A model generated the notes under the pieces. It was not told where the DNA came from and did not search any database. It saw nothing but the letters and a program-made list of their open reading frames with translations. Shown here in pieces: positions 54,234 to 64,000 of a stretch of 64,000 bases of DNA; the stretch's first letter is position 1, and each line of letters begins with the position of its first letter. The stretch is from Deltaproteobacteria bacterium. Its GTDB lineage: Bacteria; Myxococcota; Kuafuiibacteriia; Kuafuiibacteriales; Kuafuiibacteriaceae. Made by a program: the position numbers and the translations under genes. The stretch covers positions 5,437,532 to 5,501,531 of the forward strand of contig JADJPE010000005.1 of assembly GCA_016713425.1 (NCBI GenBank). Direction: 5' to 3'.

Positions 54234-55439
54234 GTGTTTTCGGAGCGTACTCGGTGGTCGCGCGAGGAGAACGCGCTCTCGCTCGAGGCCCGACAGGCGC
54301 GAGGCTTTGACGACTTCATCGACCTGACGCAGTCGAACATCACGCGGGTGGGACTCTCGTCCTCCCAGCTCGCAGAGCGTCCCCTGGCGACCCTCGATGA
54401 GGTATCCGGGTGCGCCTACGATCCGCAGCCACTCGGGACGCTCGACGCGCGATGCGCCGTGGGCGCCTACTACGAACGTCGTGGTCTTCATGTTCCTGGG
54501 GAGCGCGTCATGCTGACCGCCTCAACGAGCGAAGCGTACGTTCATTCCTTTCGCCTTCTGGCCGACCCGGGCGAGGCCGTGCTCGCGCCCACCCCGAGCT
54601 ATCCGCTCTTCTCGTTCCTCGCGGAGGCTGCGGGCATTTCGTTGTGCCCGTATCGACTTCGATTCGACGGTGAACGCTGGTACGTGTCGATGGACGACCT
54701 TCGCGATCGCCTCGAATCGGAGAGCGGGCCGAAGGTTCGAGCCATTCTCCTCGTCAGTCCCAACAACCCGACCGGTTCTTTGTTGTCGTCGCAGGAGCGT
54801 GCAGAGATCTACCGGCTGGCGCGCGCACATGAGGCGGCCGTCGTGAGCGACGAGGTGTTCCTCGATTTCTGTCATGCTTTCGATGACGATCGCACGTCAG
54901 CGTTCACGGAGCACAGCGCCGTCGACGCGCCCGTCCCGCTGGCCTTGACGCTCTCCGGCCTCTCGAAGGTGGCGGGTCTGCCGCAAGCCAAGCTCGCCTG
55001 GATGGTGGCGAGCGGCGTGCCTGCACGCGTCCATGAGGCGATGGCGCGCCTCGAGATCATGGGGGACACGTTCCTCTCGGTCTCGTCGTCGATCCAGCGT
55101 GCCGCCCCCGATATCCTAGACCAAGTCGAGGGATGGCAGTCCGAACTTCGGGGTCGACTCCGGCGGAACTGGGCGGCGCTCTCGACTCAGACCGCGACCA
55201 GCGTCAACATACGTGCGCGCCCGATTTCGGCCGGATGGCACGCCGTCCTCGCCCTTCGGACGCCGCTCGACGACGAAACGTGGGCGCGACGCTTGCTGGC
55301 TGAAGCACACGTCCTCGTGCATCCAGGCTATCTTTTCGAGATCGAAGACATGCCGTCGGCTGTCATATCCCTGATTCTCCCTGAGGAGACCTTCAGCGAT
55401 GCCGTCGCACGCCTCGTTCGCCATGCAGACAAGGCGTGA
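54234..55439 (+). CDS. pyridoxal-phosphate-dependent aminotransferase class I/II (alanine or aspartate transaminase-like)
   Basis: A 401-aa protein with an aminotransferase fold I N-terminus (RTRWSREENALS...) and the conserved SLSK (LSGLSKVAGL) PLP-lysine region. Confidence 0.85.
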   Translation: MFSERTRWSREENALSLEARQARGFDDFIDLTQSNITRVGLSSSQLAERPLATLDEVSGCAYDPQPLGTLDARCAVGAYYERRGLHVPGERVMLTASTSEAYVHSFRLLADPGEAVLAPTPSYPLFSFLAEAAGISLCPYRLRFDGERWYVSMDDLRDRLESESGPKVRAILLVSPNNPTGSLLSSQERAEIYRLARAHEAAVVSDEVFLDFCHAFDDDRTSAFTEHSAVDAPVPLALTLSGLSKVAGLPQAKLAWMVASGVPARVHEAMARLEIMGDTFLSVSSSIQRAAPDILDQVEGWQSELRGRLRRNWAALSTQTATSVNIRARPISAGWHAVLALRTPLDDETWARRLLAEAHVLVHPGYLFEIEDMPSAVISLILPEETFSDAVARLVRHADKA

Positions 55440-55450
55440 GGCGTCCCGCC

Positions 55451-55528
55451 GACCGCAGCCCCAGACCGCAGCCCCAGACCGCAGCCCCAGACCGCAGCCC
55501 CAGACCGCAGCCCCAGACCGCAGCCCAT
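55451..55528. repeat. 13-bp tandem repeat x6 (GACCGCAGCCCCA) between the aminotransferase stop and the ttcA start
   Basis: Five perfect copies and one degenerate copy. The unit length is not a multiple of 3, so the repeat is unlikely to be coding. Confidence 0.7.
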
Positions 55529-55552
55529 AAGACCGCGAGCCTCGATTCGTCG

Positions 55553-56485
55553 ATGACGTTCTTCGCCCGGTTCGCTACGGTTCTTCCCGTGTTGTCCAAA
55601 TCGACCGCGGCGGATGAGGAAGCGGTGGATCGCTTGAAGGTCCGTCTCCTCAAGCAAGTTCGGCGAACATGCAAACGCTATCAACTCCTCGCCGCGGGAG
55701 ATCGGATTCTCGTCGCCGTATCGGGCGGGAAGGACAGCTTCACGATGCTAGAGCTCATGGCCGCCCTCAAGGACCGGCTTCCCTTTCGCATCGAACTCAT
55801 CGCCGTCCATCTCGACCAAAGACAACCCGGTTATGATGGTGCACCCTTGGTCGGGTGGCTTGAGCAAAGGGGTCTGCCCTTCGAGATTCTCTCCGAAGAC
55901 ACGTATGGCGTCGTCAAGACACACGTCGAGGAAGGCGGCACGTACTGCTCCCTGTGTTCGCGCCTTCGACGAGGCATTCTCTATACCGCCGCTCAGAGGC
56001 TCGGCTGCAACAAGCTGGCCCTCGGACATCATCGCGAGGACACCCTCGAGACCTTTCTCTTGAACCTCTTCTTCGCGGGGAAGATGCAAGCCATGCCTCC
56101 CCACTACACGACGGACGACGGGACGCTCGGCGTGATTCGACCTCTTCTCGAGTGCAGCGAAGCGGAGATCGCGGAGTACGCTCGCCGCAAAGCGTTCCCG
56201 ATCCTCCCCTGCAATCTTTGCGGTTCTCAGCCGGGTCTCAAGCGAGACATGATGGGTGCGTTCATCGAACGGCTCGAAGCCGTGCAGCCCAACGTCCGCG
56301 CCACGATGATGAACGCCCTCAGCAACATTCGACCAACCCATATGCTCGACCCCGAGGTCCTCGAAGCCTGGCATGCGCGGCCGCCTCACGTGCGGCCAGT
56401 CCCCGAGGTAGCCCGCCGTACCGAACACGCAAGTGCCGAGCCGATCCGCTCCTCCCTGAGTCGCCTTCCGATCATCGACGCCTGA
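55553..56485 (+). CDS. ttcA: tRNA 2-thiocytidine(32) synthetase TtcA
   Basis: The PP-loop (SGGKDS) and both Fe-S Cys motifs (CSLCSRLRRG, PCNLCGSQ) are present. The ATG at 55553 lies downstream of the 13-bp repeat array. Confidence 0.85.
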   Translation: MTFFARFATVLPVLSKSTAADEEAVDRLKVRLLKQVRRTCKRYQLLAAGDRILVAVSGGKDSFTMLELMAALKDRLPFRIELIAVHLDQRQPGYDGAPLVGWLEQRGLPFEILSEDTYGVVKTHVEEGGTYCSLCSRLRRGILYTAAQRLGCNKLALGHHREDTLETFLLNLFFAGKMQAMPPHYTTDDGTLGVIRPLLECSEAEIAEYARRKAFPILPCNLCGSQPGLKRDMMGAFIERLEAVQPNVRATMMNALSNIRPTHMLDPEVLEAWHARPPHVRPVPEVARRTEHASAEPIRSSLSRLPIIDA

Positions 56486-56709
56486 TCCTCTCCGCCAACT
56501 CCGGTGCCTGGGCCCGCAACGCCTAGCCCGAGTCGGCCGGATGAGAGGCGAGCCTTCCGTGCCCGGAGCCTGGCGGGCGGATCAAGGCTCCTCGGTCGGT
56601 CGGGCGGTCGGGCGGTCGGGCGTGCCTCGGGAGTAAGGCGAAGAGACCTCGATCAACTCTGCGGAGCTGAAGGTTGGCAAATCGTCGACATTCGGACAGA
56701 GCCTCCCTC

Positions 56710-57483
56710 ATGCGCATCGCGACATGGAACGTGAACTCGATCTTGGCGCACGAAGACCAGGTGCTCGACTGGATCGAAAGCGAGCGCCCCGATGTCGTCT
56801 GCCTACAAGAGACCAAAGTGGTGGATCAGGCGTTCCCCGAAGATGGCTTCGGCGACCTCGGATACGATGTCGTCTTCTTCGGACAGCCACGCTACAACGG
56901 CGTCGCGATTGCGAGTCGCGCCGAGATCAGAGACGTATTCCGAGGCTTCCCGGGCGAATCCGACACCGACGATCGCCGTATCATCGGAGCCACGATCGAG
57001 GACATCCAGGTCCTCAGCGTCTACGTCCCGAACGGCCAGACCCTCGACTCGCCGCAGTATCCAAACAAGCTCACCTGGCTCGCTCGGCTGCGCACCCTGC
57101 TCGAGCCACACGCGCGCGCCGATGTCCCATTGGTGGTTGCGGGTGATTTCAACGTCGCACCGGCCGATGAGGACGTCTGGGACATCGAGGCCTTCCGGGG
57201 CGCGACCCACGTCTCCCCACCCGAACGCGAAGCCTTCTCACAGCTCCTCGACCTCGGACTCACGGATGCGCTCCGACACTTTCAGGGCTCCGACAAGCGT
57301 CTGTACACCTTCTGGGACTATCAGGCCCGAGCGTTCGAACGCGATCGCGGCATGCGCATCGATCACATGCTCATCTCGCCGCCGCTCCTCCAACGGGCCA
57401 CCGGCTGCTTCGTTGACCGCGCGGCCCGCGCAGCGGACAAGCGAAGCGACCATGCCCCGGTGGTGCTCGATCTCTCCACATGA
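56710..57483 (+). CDS. xthA: exodeoxyribonuclease III
   Basis: MRIATWNVNS...VCLQETK...DFNVAP...RIDHMLIS, with the EEP nuclease catalytic residues in canonical positions. Confidence 0.9.
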   Translation: MRIATWNVNSILAHEDQVLDWIESERPDVVCLQETKVVDQAFPEDGFGDLGYDVVFFGQPRYNGVAIASRAEIRDVFRGFPGESDTDDRRIIGATIEDIQVLSVYVPNGQTLDSPQYPNKLTWLARLRTLLEPHARADVPLVVAGDFNVAPADEDVWDIEAFRGATHVSPPEREAFSQLLDLGLTDALRHFQGSDKRLYTFWDYQARAFERDRGMRIDHMLISPPLLQRATGCFVDRAARAADKRSDHAPVVLDLST

Positions 57484-57925
57484 TCGACGCGCCCCCGACC
57501 CAAGCAGGGGCTCTCAACCAAGGAAGGCGCAGCACGGAGCCTGGCACAGCACCAAGGACCAAGACTGAGGGCAGAAGGAAGCGGGCAGAAGGCAGAGGAC
57601 GGAAGACGGGGGACGGAGACACCCAGAATTCGGGTCGGTGCCCGGGGCGCCGACGCCCTCGCGGACGGGGAAAGGCCGGCGACAAAGACCAAGAACCCGC
57701 TTGACTTCGCCGGTTCACACCCCTAACGTCTCAACGTTCGCAGCGCTCGTTTAGGGAAAAGGTTCCCCAGCGCGCTGCGTTTTCTCGACAAACCATTGAA
57801 AGGGTCACCGCGGCGCGGCCCGTCTTTTCGTTAAGAATCCGAACGTTGGCTCTGACGACGCGCGATGCGTGGCTCAAGACGACGGCACGGGTGAGCCGCA
57901 CTCAACCAACTGAGGTATCGAAAAC

Positions 57926-59365
57926 ATGACCGGTGAAGGAACCGAAACTCCCCGCCGCAGCCCCGGCAAGAAACGTCGCCCCCCAACTTCTGGAAGAGGC
58001 CCTGACCACGGCGGTGACGCGGTCGACATCCCCGAGACAGACGAGACGACCACCACGAATGAGGGCACATCGCGCGCAGAGGTGCGTGGACCAAGCATCG
58101 ACTTGAGCGACAAGAAGATGAATCTGAAGGAGCTCAAAGAGAAGCGCATCTCCGAGCTCACGCGCATGGCGCGTGAGATGGGTGTCGAAGGCGCAGCGGG
58201 CATGCGAAAGCAGGAGCTCATCTTCGCGGTCTTGACCGCGCATGCCGCCGCCAACGGACAAATCTATTCGGAAGGTGTGCTTGAGTGCCTCTCCGACGGC
58301 TTCGGGTTCCTTCGGTCCCCGGATTACAGCTATCTCCCAGGCCCGGACGACATCTACGTCTCCCCGTCGCAGCTCCGACGGTTCAACCTTCGGACGGGCG
58401 ACACGGTCAGCGGGCAGATCAGACCGCCCAAAGACAACGAGCGCTACTTCGCGATGTTGAAGGTCGAGAGCGTGAATTTCGAGCCTCCCGAAGTTGCGCG
58501 CGACAAGATCCTCTTCGACAACCTCACGCCCCTTTATCCGCAGTCGAAGCTTCAGCTCGAGTACCGAAACGACAACTACTCGACACGGATCATCGACCTC
58601 CTCACGCCGATCGGAAAGGGTCAGCGTGCATTGATTGTCTCGCCTCCGCGAGCCGGTAAGACGGTTTTGCTGCAAGACATCGCGCACGCGATTTCGACGA
58701 ACCATCCTGAAGTCTGGCTGATGGTGCTCTTGATCGACGAGCGCCCGGAAGAAGTGACCGACATGGAGCGTAGCGTCGACGGCGAAGTGATTTCGTCGAC
58801 GTTCGACGAGCCAGCGTCCCGGCACGTCCAGGTGGCCGAGATGGTGATCGAGAAGGCTAAGCGGTTGGTCGAGCACGGGCGAGATGTCGTTATCCTTCTC
58901 GATTCGATCACGCGTCTCGCGCGCGCCTACAACACGGTGATCCCGCCGTCGGGTAAGATTCTCTCGGGTGGTGTGGATGCCAACGCACTCCACAAGCCGA
59001 AACGTTTCTTCGGCGCCGCGCGAAACATCGAAGAGGGCGGTTCGTTGACCGTTATCGCGTCTGCGTTGGTCGATACCGGAAGCAGAATGGACGAAGTCAT
59101 CTTCGAGGAGTTCAAGGGTACCGGTAACTCCGAGATCCACTTGGATCGGAAGTTGATGGAAAAGCGCATCTTCCCGTGCCTCGACATCAACAAGTCGGCC
59201 ACCCGCAAGGAGGAACTCCTGCATCCGCAGGACGTCTTGAAGCGCGTCTGGATTCTCCGGCAGCTCTTGCATCCGCTGAACGTCATCGACTCGATGGAGT
59301 TCATGCTGTCGAAGCTACGACCGACGAAGGCCAACCAAGAGTTCCTCGATTCGATGAACTCCTAG
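57926..59365 (+). CDS. rho: transcription termination factor Rho, with a basic N-terminal extension of about 60 aa
   Basis: Rho N-terminal domain, cold-shock (CSD) fold, and RecA-like ATPase with Walker A (SPPRAGKT) and Q/R loops. Total 479 aa. Confidence 0.95.
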
Positions 59366-59415
59366 CCCAAAGACTTCGGATTTTTCCCCTTCCGCGCGGC
59401 CGCGCGAAGTCAGAA

Positions 59416-59530
59416 TTCCCGTACGGGAATCGTTCCAACCAACGAGCGTCCACCGGCTGCCTATATTCCCGATCGGGAATCGGAAGTCCTAACCTTGGCT
59501 ATCAGATGCCTTAGATTCCCGTTCGGGAAT
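59416..59530. repeat. array of three 16-bp palindromes, ATTCCCG-NN-CGGGAAT, at 49-50 bp centre-to-centre spacing
   Basis: Two copies are perfect palindromes: 59416-59431 (ATTCCCGTACGGGAAT) and 59465-59480 (ATTCCCGATCGGGAAT). The third, 59515-59530, has perfect 7-bp arms around a TT spacer. They lie in the convergent gap between rho and the Ser/Thr kinase gene. Confidence 0.7.
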
Positions 59531-59695
59531 GAGAATCGCCAAGACGCCGAGGATCACCATCGTGGGGAACCAGCGAGACCCGTGGCGAGATCATTCTCGC
59601 GAAGCGCGTCGCAAGGCGACGCGATCGACGCAAGCTCGACGCCAACCAACGGATGCAACGGATGCAACGGATGGATCGTGGGACCGCGAGCTCCG

Positions 59696-60889
59696 TCAGC
59701 TCGCGGTCGAAGGTCCCAAAGTCGTCGCTCGAGGCGAGACTTCGTGCGTCAGCGGCTCACCATGGGCGAGCAAGCTCGCGACCCGGCGCTCCGATCGACG
59801 CAACGGCTCGGCCTCGAGTACCTGATGGCGCTCAAGCGATACACGCTCGACCCGGTCTGGCGACTGAAGCGCGTTCATAATCGCGTCCTCGAGGTTGTTC
59901 TCAGCCGCGATTCGAGCGCGCACGACCGCGTGGCCAAGGCCCCGCTCCTGGTCGAGACAGCGCGCGCCAATGAGAAGGCGACGAAGATCGCTCCGGCAGC
60001 GCTCGGAGTCATACTCGATGAGCGCGCTGTCCAGTGCATCTGCGAACGCGCGCGCCGACTGATAGCGGTCGCGGGGGTCCAGCTCTGTCGCCTTTCGGAA
60101 GACGAGATCCATGGAAGCGGGTAGACCTGGGCGGGCGTCTTCGAGCGTCGGGAGATCGGCGTTCGCAACGCGAATCATGAGCTGGGCCACGCCCACGTCA
60201 TCGTAGATCCGCTTGCCGGCCAGGAGCTCCCAGAGCACCAAGGCCGTCGAATAGACGTCCGTGCAGGCCGTGGTGATGTGGCCTTTGATTTGTTCCGGCG
60301 CCATGTACCGGAACTTGCCCTTGACGTTTCCCGCCTCGGTCTTCGCGAGCCGATTCTGTGCGCGCGCAATGCCGAAGTCGACCAAGCGAACACGGCCGTC
60401 GACGTCCACCATCACGTTGCCCGGCGAAACATCGCGGTGAACCACGTTCAGATAGTCGCCCTGCTCATCCTTGATGTTGTGGGCATAGTCGAGGCCTTCC
60501 AAGATCTCGCGCACGATGTGCACCGAAGCCTCGAGCGAGAAGTCCTGTCGAGTCTCACGCGCGAAACGTTTGAGCCGTCCGAGGTCAACGCCGTCGACGT
60601 ACTGCAAGATCAGCCCGAGTTGCCCTTCGACCTCAACGACTTCAACGACAGAGGCAATGTTCTCGTGGTTGAGAAGCGAGCAGATCTTCGCCTCATCCAT
60701 GAGCATCTTTCGAAACTCGACGTCATCGTCGCAATCCGGCCGGATACGCTTGAGCGCGAAAGCTTGGTCGGGCCAGTTGTCCCGATAAACTTTGAAGATC
60801 TCGGCCATGCCTCCGCTGGCGATCCGTTCGACCACCCAATAGGGACCAAACTGCCCCAGCTCGGAGCGCGAGCTCGTCATGCGTGACAT
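59696..60889 (-). CDS. Hanks-type serine/threonine protein kinase
   Basis: A Gly-rich loop (IASGGMAEIF), the catalytic loop (HRDVSPGNV), DFG and APE motifs. The start was chosen at the Met of MSRMTSS before the kinase domain; the ORF extends to 60952. Confidence 0.85.
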   Translation of the reverse strand: MSRMTSSRSELGQFGPYWVVERIASGGMAEIFKVYRDNWPDQAFALKRIRPDCDDDVEFRKMLMDEAKICSLLNHENIASVVEVVEVEGQLGLILQYVDGVDLGRLKRFARETRQDFSLEASVHIVREILEGLDYAHNIKDEQGDYLNVVHRDVSPGNVMVDVDGRVRLVDFGIARAQNRLAKTEAGNVKGKFRYMAPEQIKGHITTACTDVYSTALVLWELLAGKRIYDDVGVAQLMIRVANADLPTLEDARPGLPASMDLVFRKATELDPRDRYQSARAFADALDSALIEYDSERCRSDLRRLLIGARCLDQERGLGHAVVRARIAAENNLEDAIMNALQSPDRVERVSLERHQVLEAEPLRRSERRVASLLAHGEPLTHEVSPRATTLGPSTAS

Positions 60890-61099
60890 GTTCGAAGCAC
60901 CGTGCCGTTCCGCCGTCACTTTCGTCTCATGCGTCGCACATTTCGAAGGCATACGGAACCCCGGCGAGGGACCTTCCCGCGGTCACGCGCCCGCAGCCAT
61001 TCGTGTCATCAGAACGCATTCGCGACAACGCATCGCGAAAGACTACCCGAGTGTGCCGGCCTGTGATATGCCACCGATTCCGTAGTCGAGCACCCCAGC

Positions 61100-61172
61100 A
61101 GGCGGATAGCTCAGTTGGTAGAGCAACGCTTTTACACGGCGTGGGTCGCAGGTTCGAGCCCTGTTCCGCCTA
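61100..61172 (+). tRNA. tRNA-Val (anticodon TAC)
   Basis: A manually folded cloverleaf: acceptor AGGCGGA/TCCGCCT, D-arm GCTC-AGTTGGTA-GAGC, anticodon stem ACGCT/GGCGT with loop TTTACAC, T-arm GCAGG-TTCGAGC-CCTGT, and discriminator A. Confidence 0.85.
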
Positions 61173-61320
61173 AATTCACCCCCTGCCCTCGCGACCGCAT
61201 GGAGACCAGCATGCACCCCGTCCCTTGGGCTCTTAGTGTCACGCCAACAAGAAATCCGTTTCGCGCCGTTCGATCGAATTGTAAAGTCGCTTCTTTACGA
61301 AACGAAAGCGGCCCCCTAGC

Positions 61321-61653
61321 GTGCGCTCCCGGATGAGCACCGAGGAGAACGAAACGGCAACGATTTATCGGCGGGGAGGTCACGTCAACCTCCAGCTCGC
61401 CTCTCGATATGATGAATCTTTGATCGAGGAGGCGCGGACAATCTCGGCCCGACTCTTGGATCGGGTGAAGGCAAACGTCGACGATTTCGACGACTTCGCA
61501 CGACGCGTCGAGCGTTCTGAAGAGTTCAGCCTTCACGAATCAGCTCAGCTCTCGAAAAAAGAGAAGGAGTTCCGGACCGTATATCTCCGCGGGCGCGCAC
61601 TCCTCGACGCGATCGCCGAAGCAGAAGCTCGAAAGGCGCGGTTCGGTCGTTGA
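61321..61653 (+). CDS. hypothetical small protein (110 aa)
   Basis: An ORF of coding-like composition following the tRNA. No recognisable domain. Confidence 0.35.
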   Translation: MRSRMSTEENETATIYRRGGHVNLQLASRYDESLIEEARTISARLLDRVKANVDDFDDFARRVERSEEFSLHESAQLSKKEKEFRTVYLRGRALLDAIAEAEARKARFGR

Positions 61654-61689
61654 CGCCCCCTCGAGCGATTGAGGCGCGGTCACACCTTC

Positions 61690-61833
61690 TCGGCCGCTAT
61701 CGCTTTCTTGGCCGCTATCGCTTTCTTGGCCGCTATCGCTTTCTCGGCCGCTATCGCTTTCTCGGCCGCTATCGCTTTCTCGGCCGCTATCGCTTTCTCG
61801 GCCGCTATCGCTTTCTCAACAGCTATCGCCTTC
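61690..61833. repeat. 18-bp tandem repeat x8 (GGCCGCTATCGCTTTCTY) in the convergent gap between the hypothetical ORF and rlmN
   Basis: Seven near-identical copies and one degenerate copy, read directly. There are no interspersed spacers. Confidence 0.75.
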
Positions 61834-62898
61834 TCGGATCGGCAGACGGGTTCTTCGCAGTTCGATGTTCCCGAGCTGACCGCATCCGGCCATGACGGAG
61901 CGCCCCTTCGTCACCCGTCGCGTCACTGGAACGTGAAGCGACGAAAGCCAAGCCATGAACTGAGCGACCTCGGCTTCCGTGGGCGCCCGCGCGAGCGGTT
62001 TCGTCCCCGGATTGTACGGAATAACGTTTACCATGACACGAAGTGATCGACAGAACGCCGCAACGGCCTCCGCATCCTCGCGGCGATCATTGATCCCCGG
62101 CATCAAACAATAGTTGATGCCATAGACGAACTTCGCCCGCCGCGGAAATCGCTCGAGCGCATCGCGAAGGGCCGCAATCCCGACCTTTCGATTCATCGGC
62201 ATGACGCGATCCCGAACTTCGTCCGTCGCACTGTTCAAGCTAATCGAAACATCGAGACGCTTCCAACCAAGCGTCGCCAACTTGGCCAGGCCGTCGGGAT
62301 GCCCAACCGTGCAGATCGTCAGACGCTGCTGTCCATAGGACAAACCGAACGGATCGTTCATCACGCGCAACGCACCGATCACGTTGTCTGCGTTATCAAG
62401 CGGCTCGCCCATCCCCATGAAGACGATGTTGCGAATGGGCCAGCCCAAGAAACCACGGGCCAGGACGAGCTGACCCACGATCTCCGCCGTGCTCAAGTTG
62501 CGCAGAAGGCCCATGCGCCCGGTTTCGCAGAAGCCACAAGCAAGACGGCAGCCCACCTGACTCGAGACACACAAGGTGTACTTGCCGCCGCCCATCGGCA
62601 CCCGCACCATCTCGAACTCGAGGCCCTCCTCGGTCGCCAGGACCGTCTTGATCGTGTCGCCGTCGAAGGCGGAGGGCTCGGCAACGCTCCGAACGACCCG
62701 CGGCAAACTGAACCGAAACGCGGCCCGCCAGGCCTCGACCGCCTCCGGGCGAAGGCCCATCGTGTCGGGCTGAAAACGGCCCTCCAGGCAGGCCTCTCGA
62801 TAGATCCGCCGCGCAACCCCGAACCCGCGCGGGATGAGGCGCTGGGCCTCCGCAAACAACGCGCGGCCGCCAAACTCAAGGATGTGGCGCTGAGTCAT
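61816..62898 (-). CDS. rlmN: 23S rRNA/tRNA m2A methyltransferase RlmN (radical SAM, Cfr family)
   Basis: The radical-SAM motif (CGFCETG), MGMGEPL, and the conserved C-terminal Cys (MAGCGQL) are present. The ORF extends to 62913 (MHAHGMTQRH), giving an alternative start. Confidence 0.85.
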   Translation of the reverse strand: MTQRHILEFGGRALFAEAQRLIPRGFGVARRIYREACLEGRFQPDTMGLRPEAVEAWRAAFRFSLPRVVRSVAEPSAFDGDTIKTVLATEEGLEFEMVRVPMGGGKYTLCVSSQVGCRLACGFCETGRMGLLRNLSTAEIVGQLVLARGFLGWPIRNIVFMGMGEPLDNADNVIGALRVMNDPFGLSYGQQRLTICTVGHPDGLAKLATLGWKRLDVSISLNSATDEVRDRVMPMNRKVGIAALRDALERFPRRAKFVYGINYCLMPGINDRREDAEAVAAFCRSLRVMVNVIPYNPGTKPLARAPTEAEVAQFMAWLSSLHVPVTRRVTKGRSVMAGCGQLGNIELRRTRLPIREGDSC

Positions 62899-62952
62899 CC
62901 CATGGGCGTGCAACGCTTTGCACGAAGACGCAACGAATCCCTCGCCGGCCGC

Positions 62953-63582
62953 GTGCGACCATGCGAAACTTGCGGCGCCACGGTCCGCCTAGAAGACATC
63001 GAGCGCGCCCTCGCGATTCACCAGCCGACCCGACCCCCGCTCCAGCGGATCTTTCGAAAGGCCGCCGTTGCGGCCATCTTCCGCACTTCTTCAACGTCAA
63101 CGCTCGAGCTGCTCTTCATTCGCCGCGCCGAGCACCCGCGCGATCCCTGGTCCGGCCACATGGCTTTTCCGGGGGGGAGGATGGATCCGGTCGACAGAAC
63201 ACCACTCGACGCCGCAGTCCGCGAGACACGGGAAGAACTGGGTCTCGATCTCGAGCGACACGGGCAGAATATCGGGGCCCTCTCGCCCGTCCCCGCGACC
63301 GCCCACGGAAAACCGGTTCCGCTCATCATCTCGCCCTTTGTCTTCAGCGTCGGTGAGGCACCGCCGCTCGCGCTCAATCACGAGGTCCAAGAAGTCGTCT
63401 GGATCCCGATCTCTTTTTTTCTCGACCCGCGCCACCGCACACACATGCGACGCGCCATTGCCGACGTCCCGGTCACCCTTCCCTGCTACAACTATCAGTC
63501 ACGCTGCATCTGGGGCCTGACCTTGCGCATGGTCGACGAGCTCCTCGCCATTCTCCGAGGCCTGGCTGCGACTCGAACCTAG
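62953..63582 (+). CDS. NUDIX hydrolase, CoA pyrophosphatase-like (NudL family)
   Basis: AAVAAIFR...LLFIRRAEHPRDPWSGHMAFPGGRMDPVDRTPLDAAVRETREELGL, a Nudix box in the NudL-like UPF0035 context. The 5' part of the track ORF is antisense to rlmN, and the start is uncertain (GTG 62953 or ATG 62902). Confidence 0.5.
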   Translation: MRPCETCGATVRLEDIERALAIHQPTRPPLQRIFRKAAVAAIFRTSSTSTLELLFIRRAEHPRDPWSGHMAFPGGRMDPVDRTPLDAAVRETREELGLDLERHGQNIGALSPVPATAHGKPVPLIISPFVFSVGEAPPLALNHEVQEVVWIPISFFLDPRHRTHMRRAIADVPVTLPCYNYQSRCIWGLTLRMVDELLAILRGLAATRT

Positions 63583-63975
63583 GGCCACGCCCGCTGACGG
63601 TGAGGCCGCCAACATCCGTCCCGCACCGTCGCCCAAGAGCGCGCCAAAGGCGCTTCCGATCAGGGCGCCCGCCTTCAGGACCGCATCTGTTTTCGCGGCC
63701 GGCAAACCCCGGCGAAGCGCGTCGACCATCGCGGCCGGACTGCGAACGTGCTCCGCGACCCATCCAGCGCCTCTGACCACCTTGTTGACGCCGCCCAGGA
63801 AGAAATGTCCGAACACGAGTGCCAAGAGCGCCCCTCCGACGGCCCCAACCGTACCGCCGACCGCCCGTCCAGCCACCTGACGCGTTCGCGCGAACGACTC
63901 GTCCCCCGAGCGGAGATCGGACGCGGCCGCGGTGCCCAAACTCACGAGATCGATGCCGAGCGTCACCGGGAGCAT
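63499..63975 (-). CDS. hypothetical Gly-rich membrane protein
   Basis: Gly-zipper-like segments (GALIGSAFGALLG; VGGTVGAVGGALLALVFG). Low-complexity composition, weak call. Confidence 0.25.
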   Translation of the reverse strand: MLPVTLGIDLVSLGTAAASDLRSGDESFARTRQVAGRAVGGTVGAVGGALLALVFGHFFLGGVNKVVRGAGWVAEHVRSPAAMVDALRRGLPAAKTDAVLKAGALIGSAFGALLGDGAGRMLAASPSAGVALGSSRSQASENGEELVDHAQGQAPDAA

Positions 63976-64000
63976 CGCTCGAACCGCCAGCGAGCCGGTC

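Follow-up and report, generated by a model that had tools for sequence, protein, structure and literature searches.

A candidate HipB-type operator array detached from hipBA genes, between convergent rho and kinase genes of a member of the Myxococcota

The palindrome array and its surroundings

The window analysed here is a stretch of 64,000 nucleotides (positions 5,437,532 to 5,501,531 of contig JADJPE010000005.1, assembly GCA_016713425.1) from a deltaproteobacterium assigned to the Myxococcota, and the element in question is an array of three short palindromes in the 330-bp gap between two convergent genes, rho and a gene for a Hanks-type Ser/Thr kinase (Table 1). All three copies match ATTCCCGNNCGGGAAT (ATTCCCG-NN-CGGGAAT) with no mismatch and their starts lie exactly 50 bp apart, which leaves 34 bp between successive 16-bp palindromes. 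The centres are TA, AT and TT, so that the first two copies are perfect palindromes and the third is asymmetric in its central TT only. A sequence-only reading of this DNA had described three such palindromes, two perfect and one near-perfect, with centres 49-50 bp apart and downstream of both rho and the kinase gene; this description holds, save that the array starts at 59415, one base earlier than the 59416 given there. The weak similarity that it noted around the palindromes is also present, but is confined to 1-4 flanking bases, the only sequence shared among the units beyond the palindrome itself. No further copy was found in the 64-kb window with up to two mismatches tolerated, and none of 100 dinucleotide-preserving shuffles contained three or more matches (mean 0.45).

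Table 1. Coordinates of the features discussed (window positions, unless a viral contig is named)
Feature	Position	Strand	Remarks
rho	57926-59365	+	Rho_N, Rho_RNA_bind and ATPase domains
Compound hairpin right after the rho stop	59372-59411	+	-15.4 kcal/mol; outside the array
Predicted operator 1, distal in the inferred polarity	59415-59430		ATTCCCGTACGGGAAT; perfect 16-bp palindrome
Predicted operator 2, middle	59465-59480		ATTCCCGATCGGGAAT; perfect palindrome, 50 bp past operator 1
Predicted operator 3, proximal in the inferred polarity	59515-59530		ATTCCCGTTCGGGAAT; perfect arms, TT centre, 50 bp past operator 2
-10-like hexamer TATATT	59462-59467	+	Overlaps the start of operator 2; begins at -4 relative to the operator core
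-10-like hexamer TAGATT	59512-59517	+	Overlaps the start of operator 3; same canonical register
Non-coding stretch at the expected place of hipB	59531-59695	+	165 nt; GCGTCGC-AAG-GCGACGC hairpin and CAACGGATG x3 tandem repeat
Tandem repeat CAACGGATG x3	59647-59678		Last copy imperfect; between the array and the kinase stop
Direct repeat CCAACCAACG, perfect, 10 bp	59435-59444 and 59642-59651		In the first spacer and shortly ahead of the tandem repeat, at a distance of 207 bp
Inverted repeat across the kinase stop codon	59682-59708	-	Perfect 11-bp stem, 5-nt loop; -25.1 kcal/mol, z = -3.9
Hanks-type Ser/Thr kinase gene	59696-60952	-	Pkinase domain
tRNA-Val	61100-61172		Just upstream of the kinase gene
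Example viral pair	L210:5365-5427
Example viral pair	L262:3534-3596
Example viral pair	L234:2664-2727
Example viral pair	L265:560-623

The same palindrome and spacing in front of hipB genes

Antitoxins of type II systems act as repressors of their own operons, binding to palindromes in the promoter. When one genome per species (596 Gb) was scanned for pairs of TTCCCGNNCGGGAA sites starting 35-65 bp from each other, at least 119 loci were found in about a dozen phyla, against a chance expectation of about 0.1 by our own order-of-magnitude estimate. Among the phyla and classes represented are Acidobacteriota, Alpha-, Beta- and Gammaproteobacteria, Actinomycetota, Planctomycetota, Verrucomicrobiota, Spirochaetota, Elusimicrobiota, Gemmatimonadota, Chloroflexota, Myxococcota and others. 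The 119 loci, which are an arbitrary sample of the matches, were examined as 8-kb blocks or as whole short contigs, and a few of those that seem to lack hipB near an end (e.g. L009 and L079) may be cut. These loci contain 169 neighbouring pairs, of which 127 (75%) have a spacing of 49 or 50 bp, with 35-65 bp allowed.

In 96 of the 119 loci (81%, a linkage that rests on that sample), a gene encoding a helix-turn-helix (HTH) protein of 70-90 amino acids starts within 200 nt of the array, mostly at about 0-30 nt, and is directed away from it. These proteins match TIGR03070, the "type II toxin-antitoxin system Y4mF family antitoxin" (couple_hipB), with E values of 1e-18 to 1e-23, and also match Pfam HTH_3. 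The gene following hipB encodes the HipA toxin kinase, with HipA_C and Couple_hipA domains (PF07804 and PF13657), and HipA is present in 82 of the 119 loci. In these canonical arrays, 0-30 nt separate the end of the proximal site from the hipB start codon, and the commonest layout is three sites at -100/-50/0; with up to two mismatches tolerated per site, the 96 arrays comprise 45 with three sites, 38 with two, nine with four and four with five, and many two-site arrays hold an extra degenerate copy in phase. The spacing in this group is 49 bp in 47 cases and 50 bp in 95. The spacer ahead of the proximal site contains a TTGACA-like -35 element and T-A at -4/-3, and a sigma-70-like promoter with its -10 element overlapping the proximal site was detected in the forward direction in 32 of 83 canonical arrays versus 4 of 83 in reverse.

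The core of operator 1 in the window, TTCCCG-N2-CGGGAA, is that of 233 exact sites located 5' of hipB in other genomes, and the AT centre of operator 2 is the most frequent centre among them (82/233). From this comparison, the array in the window is very probably a HipB-type operator array. HipB is proposed as the binding protein because of the position of the sites and because HipB-operator systems have been solved or assayed. One of the proposals of the sequence-only reading, that the palindromes are binding sites for a dimeric DNA-binding protein, thus gains strong support, as the same palindrome and phasing occur directly 5' of Y4mF/HipB genes elsewhere, and its remark that the copies face the same side of the helix agrees with what is known of HipB operator arrays. 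When window positions 55001-64000 were compared with the 119 array loci by blastn, nothing matched.

The other proposal of that reading, a cluster of repetitive extragenic palindromes (REP) or a bacterial interspersed mosaic element (BIME) acting at mRNA 3' ends, did not stand, and we consider it, together with the idea of hairpin terminators stabilising or ending the rho and kinase mRNAs, highly improbable. The convergent intergenic gap would suit such a role and either strand of each copy can fold into a 6-bp hairpin; however, folding of the RNA gave only -7 to -8 kcal/mol for each of these hairpins, the 330-nt gap folds no better than shuffled sequences (z = -1.5 and -1.1), and no terminator with a T-run lies in the gap, the only one in 59000-60100 being at 59978-59991, inside the kinase gene. 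No Rfam 15 family matched at E <= 1 within 58800-60200 on either strand. Moreover, both genes have stronger hairpins of their own. The compound hairpin after the rho stop ends 4 nt ahead of operator 1, and because it stops there rho has a 3' structure separate from the array, while the inverted repeat across the kinase stop codon has no T-run and is probably the 3' hairpin of the kinase mRNA. REPs are species-specific, form stable imperfect stem-loops of about 20-40 nt with a conserved structure, and occur as hundreds of dispersed copies that act as RNA or DNA hairpins; in species rich in them there is a copy roughly every 5-10 kb. The palindrome of the window shares with REP and BIME elements only that it is short, clustered and extragenic; it has just its three copies in 64 kb, its arms are identical across phyla, it is linked to a repressor gene, and elsewhere the array sits upstream of a gene rather than downstream.

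The degenerate in-phase copies bear on the same question. Their changes are one-sided, mostly TTACCG or the mirror form CGGTAA, and pairing is broken in 41 of them and compensated in six. Since these copies break the palindrome rather than compensate, they point to sequence-specific recognition by a protein and not to an RNA stem. That the arms do not vary among exact copies follows from the search pattern; the peak in spacing, the association with hipB and the way in which degenerate copies vary do not.

The regular 50-bp period with unlike spacers might also call to mind a miniature array of the CRISPR (clustered regularly interspaced short palindromic repeat) type, with repeats of about 20 nt and unique spacers of about 30 nt. 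This we regard as the least credible of the readings, a near-negligible one: the repeat is only 16-20 nt long (at least 23 nt being expected) and varies at its centre, there are only three copies, no cas genes were seen near the array (the whole window was not screened for them), and the identical arrangement is a hipB promoter at 96 other loci.

The HipA subfamily linked to this operator is very large and highly conserved. The HipA homologues of a Myxococcales locus (L097:2599-3873) number more than 7,800 proteins at E <= 1e-20; the best 120 of them include proteins named from Proteobacteria, Planctomycetes and Verrucomicrobia (Methylacidiphilales), and 117 of the 120 are 66-69% identical. 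Such a pattern is in keeping with frequent horizontal transfer of the cassette as a whole, along with its operators.

Some lineages depart from the common spacing. In Planctomycetota, the palindromes 5' of hipB are spaced 57-61 bp instead of 49-50 bp (L020:7345-7418, L052:5451-5524, L070:3819-3892, L086:3675-3749 and L099:161-231), and in Terricaulis and a metagenome-assembled genome (MAG) of the Hyphomonadaceae (L022 and L071) the spacing alternates, with 39-42 bp and, in L022, 50 bp. These lineage-specific spacings could reflect differences in how the HipB-HipA complex assembles.

Free-standing pairs in other genomes and in phages

A Y4mF HipB is lacking at 23 of the 119 genome loci, and 13 of the 119 hold a pair spaced 48-50 bp with no hipB. 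Several of these 13 pairs lie beside an integrase gene (L014 and L113), an AlpA-like gene (L054) or a gene for an IS630-type HTH protein (L025). When a collection of 2.9 million viral contigs was scanned in full, with the spacing restricted to 44-54 bp, a TTCCCGNNCGGGAA pair was detected in 63 contigs (L206-L268), the spacing being 49 bp 32 times, 50 bp 23 times and 51 bp seven times. In only one of the 63 is hipB or hipA found nearby, and 62 have no Y4mF HipB anywhere on the contig; in the whole collection, HipB with the family signature occurs in just 20 viral contigs, one of which is among the 63.

About 15 of these contigs belong to related AT-rich phages, in which both palindromes and the 49-bp spacing are exact while the spacer and flanks have diverged. 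That these pairs stay exact amid divergence indicates that orphan arrays can be under selection. The pair in this group is intergenic and lies upstream of an operon of putative small-terminase and large-terminase genes. In contigs of jumbo phages (L218; L234, L242 and L257) the pair is inside clusters of tRNA genes, and in L265 and L267 it directly adjoins a tRNA 3' end. Examples are given in Table 1; a few viral matches are coding repeats and irrelevant here. A blastn search of two of the viral groups against GenBank phages found no match.

When the open reading frames (ORFs) within 2.5 kb of the pairs were clustered, no gene family was common to unrelated orphan loci, which points to a protein acting in trans, most simply the HipB of the host. 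A dimeric regulator other than HipB, encoded elsewhere and sharing the half-site, would account for the lack of HipB in the window and at the orphan loci of genomes and phages alike. We nevertheless judge it improbable, given that hipBA promoters have the same motif, 50-bp phasing and three-site layout, that the orphan loci have no alternative gene in common and that no HTH gene adjoins the array of the window.

It is conceivable, though we advance it only as a tentative idea with the odds against it, that free-standing phased pairs and triplets form a functional class linking chromosomal loci, integrative elements and phages to the HipB-HipA of the host, with the array of the window as a chromosomal three-site example. 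Members of such a class might bring a promoter under HipB control, which would fire on degradation of HipB under stress, or alternatively might serve as DNA decoys that soak up HipA-HipB and keep the toxin inactive.

Three species of Elusimicrobiaceae have a nearly identical orphan pair (L014:315-377, L021:6401-6463 and L113:5017-5079), which in L014 and L113 lies just past the 3' end of a tyrosine-integrase gene and is probably at the edge of one integrative element. In Bacteroidales (Parabacteroides and Prevotella) the palindrome is found within tandem repeats of 41-42 bp with near-identical "spacers" and no hipB nearby (L029:7237-7374, L055:25-79, L061:2006-2060 and L101:2714-2768), and a delta-proteobacterial MAG (L085:308-363) has the same spacing; the Bacteroidales repeats seem to be of another kind, with only the palindrome in common. 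Gordonibacter, Collinsella and Tannerella have a pair spaced 46 bp without hipB (L056:6091-6150, L102:3022-3081 and L109:5260-5319). L056 and L102 have neighbouring ORFs in common, one of which is identical in the part compared. Additional single copies lie at distances of 1.4 and 3.6 kb, and the pair may be part of a shared mobile element.

Polarity of the array and the missing toxin-antitoxin genes

In the window, the T-A at -4/-3 precedes operators 2 and 3 on the + strand only, within the two -10-like hexamers (Table 1). The register of TATATT is the canonical one, since in canonical arrays T/A stands at -4/-3 and the -10 element starts at -7 to -4 in 35 of 41 promoter-like sites, which belong to the 32 of 83 arrays with such a site. 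In addition, the last bases of operator 3, the usual place of the hipB start, overlap an ATG at 59529. Because the hexamers occur on the + strand only and the ATG lies at the end of operator 3, the array appears to point rightwards, to the 3' end of the kinase gene.

Three copies of TTCCCG-N2-CGGGAA, each extended to 16 bp by an A and a T at its ends and phased at 50 bp, are found here much as in hipBA promoters, whereas no TIGR03070 gene abuts the proximal site and no HipA gene follows. No HTH gene of any sort adjoins the array in the window, and the neighbouring kinase is of the Hanks type rather than HipA, has a convergent gene, and is also conserved in relatives without the array. The array is therefore an orphan, detached from hipBA genes.

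The stretch from 59531 to 59695, where hipB would be expected, has no codon-position bias in G+C content (0.62/0.62/0.64, versus 0.59/0.41/0.78 in rho), and no Pfam match was found in the ORFs that overlap it. An ORF of 98 amino acids that begins where hipB would (59529-59825) was rejected as a gene, as it shows no codon-position G+C bias and no Pfam match and overlaps, in antisense, the conserved 3' end of the kinase gene. The best match to the HipA profile in the whole 64 kb does, by an odd coincidence, adjoin the array (59533-59877, + strand; 2.2 bits, E 4.7), but a hipA remnant was dismissed there as noise, the match being to an Arg-rich stretch of low complexity encoded in part by the CAACGGATG repeat. 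The best match to the HipB profile near the array reached 0.9 bits, which is likewise noise. The CCAACCAACG direct repeat does not flank the whole array on both sides.

The junction between rho and the kinase gene is, on the sequences compared, lineage-specific. In relatives with a kinase 93% or 66% identical, the convergent gene after the kinase gene is Lon and not rho (L120:2600-2747 and L123:7150-7293), the gap between the two is about 148 bp and has no array, and similarity to the window stops at the kinase stop codon; the Lon gene is not in the 64-kb window. At 80 metagenome loci with a rho 61-79% identical, there was no motif beside rho, no HipB and no synteny past rho, apart from a single copy of the palindrome just upstream of rho in one of them (L202). 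Among the loci compared, no sister locus near enough to reveal an earlier state of the junction was found.

A working free-standing operator or a relic

Because free-standing arrays recur in genomes and phages, we favour, by a modest degree of confidence, a free-standing operator array that is bound in trans by HipB, or by HipB-HipA, from hipBA genes elsewhere in the genome. The site in the window would then presumably still be in use. Each palindrome of 14-16 bp is predicted to be the site for one dimer of a HipB-family antitoxin with an HTH of the Cro/C1 type, supplied by a hipBA module located elsewhere in the 7.3-Mb genome. The 49-50-bp phasing would let adjacent HipB2-HipA2 units touch on one face of the DNA, and the HipB dimers with their bound HipA kinases could assemble cooperatively into a higher-order repressor complex. 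As an additional HipB-controlled site, the array may be a repressible weak promoter; alternatively, it might act as a roadblock between the convergent rho and kinase genes or as a titration site for the HipB-HipA complex.

Several points weigh against such a working array. Neither hipB nor hipA was found in the 64-kb window by tblastn with 62 HipB sequences or with HipB and HipA profiles (filters off), and the reading presupposes a cognate HipB encoded elsewhere in the genome. No close relative has the array at this locus, so that no conservation there speaks for selection. The best -35 pairings are poor, both at operator 2 (CCAACG-17-TATATT, 7/12) and at operator 3 (CTAACC-17-TAGATT, 7/12), and no promoter-like site passed in a scan of 59000-60100, a test that only 39% of canonical arrays pass. 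Finally, we found no paper with HipB binding data for TTCCCG-N2-CGGGAA.

A serious rival to this reading is that the array is a recent relic, a hipBA cassette having once stood between rho and the kinase gene and its genes having been deleted, leaving the operators without present function. The full canonical three-site layout, the rightward polarity and an ATG at the exact place of the hipB start would be explained, the locus is rearranged relative to relatives, toxin-antitoxin cassettes are mobile, the associated HipA subfamily being 67-69% identical across phyla, and the poor -35 elements would fit incipient decay. On the other hand, the profile searches left no trace of hipB or hipA coding sequence, the deletion would need to begin exactly at the hipB start codon, and all 48 palindrome positions are intact, which is unlikely beyond about 5% neutral divergence (our own estimate, exp(-48 x 0.05) = 0.09). 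Orphan pairs are, moreover, kept exact among diverged phages. We therefore consider a relic possible but rather unlikely, and retain the free-standing operator bound in trans as the preferred reading.

Implications for HipB-controlled promoters

Taken alone, the feature in the window is a modest curiosity with a putative function, but it has yielded an operator consensus and an unexpected observation in phages. For the very large Y4mF/HipB-HipA family, a cross-phylum operator consensus can be proposed: TTCCCG-N2-CGGGAA, often with A/T-rich flanks and usually in three copies at 49-50 bp. With this consensus, hipBA promoters and HipB regulons become predictable from sequence alone. Complete operator arrays without toxin-antitoxin genes occur both on the chromosome studied here and in phages (62 of the 63 contigs found); if host HipB does bind such orphan sites, the regulon of this persistence toxin would be wider than thought, and mobile elements could sense or disarm it.

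HipB operator arrays as such are already known, but the TTCCCG-N2-CGGGAA half-site appears not to have been written out in the searchable literature, in which no paper has both the motif and HipB, the sole co-occurrence being a primer. One 2023 paper mentions only two conserved hipBA operator sequences. For a full three-site array without hipBA, no earlier description was found.

Comparison with known HipB operator systems

Among proteins of solved structure, the closest relative of the Y4mF HipB proteins is HipB(Lp) (PDB 8ezt, E 1.5e-7). In Legionella, HipBST has three evenly spaced 18-nt sites (O1-O3) with gaps of 53 bp 5' of hipB, to which HipB binds in electrophoretic mobility shift assays, and the motif is absent elsewhere in that genome save for a duplicated locus (PMC10653801). 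The array of the window resembles it in having three evenly spaced sites, but differs in their sequence, length and gap.

In Caulobacter crescentus, the promoters of hipBA1 and hipBA2 have three identical inverted repeats at regular intervals 5' of hipB (Huang 2020, PMC7029023; Zhou 2021, PMC8545095). Because Caulobacterales loci in our sample (L006, L112 and L119) carry the motif, these repeats probably belong to the same motif family. They are attached to hipBA, whereas the array of the window is not.

The hipBA operon of E. coli K-12 has four TATCC-N8-GGATA sites (O1-O4) that overlap the promoter and are bound cooperatively, with HipA as co-repressor (PMC3920265); on NC_000913.3 we found them to be 18 bp long with starts 28, 39 and 28 bp apart. 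Multiple palindromic sites for HipB dimers are thus common to E. coli and, as predicted, to the window, although the half-site, the spacing and the attachment to hipBA differ. HipB of E. coli reportedly also has sites outside hipBA, in the promoters of relA, eutH and fadH. This would be an antitoxin binding away from its own operon, as is proposed here, but through single sites in promoters and not through a phased triplet in a convergent gap.

The closest likeness in geometry is to hipAB of Shewanella oneidensis, which has four 16-bp GTGTA-N6-TACAC sites "equally separated by 34 bp" and for which the HipA-HipB-DNA complex has been solved (Wen et al. 2014, NAR; PMC4150777). The 16-bp palindromes, the 34-bp gaps and the 50-bp period are identical to those of the window. 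The two arrays differ in that S. oneidensis has four sites beside hipAB and the window three sites without hip genes, and the half-sites are unrelated, with 5-nt arms and a 6-nt centre in S. oneidensis versus 6-7-nt arms and a 2-nt centre here. The recurrence of the 50-bp period with an unrelated half-site suggests that the phasing is set by the higher-order HipA-HipB complex and not by the DNA sequence.

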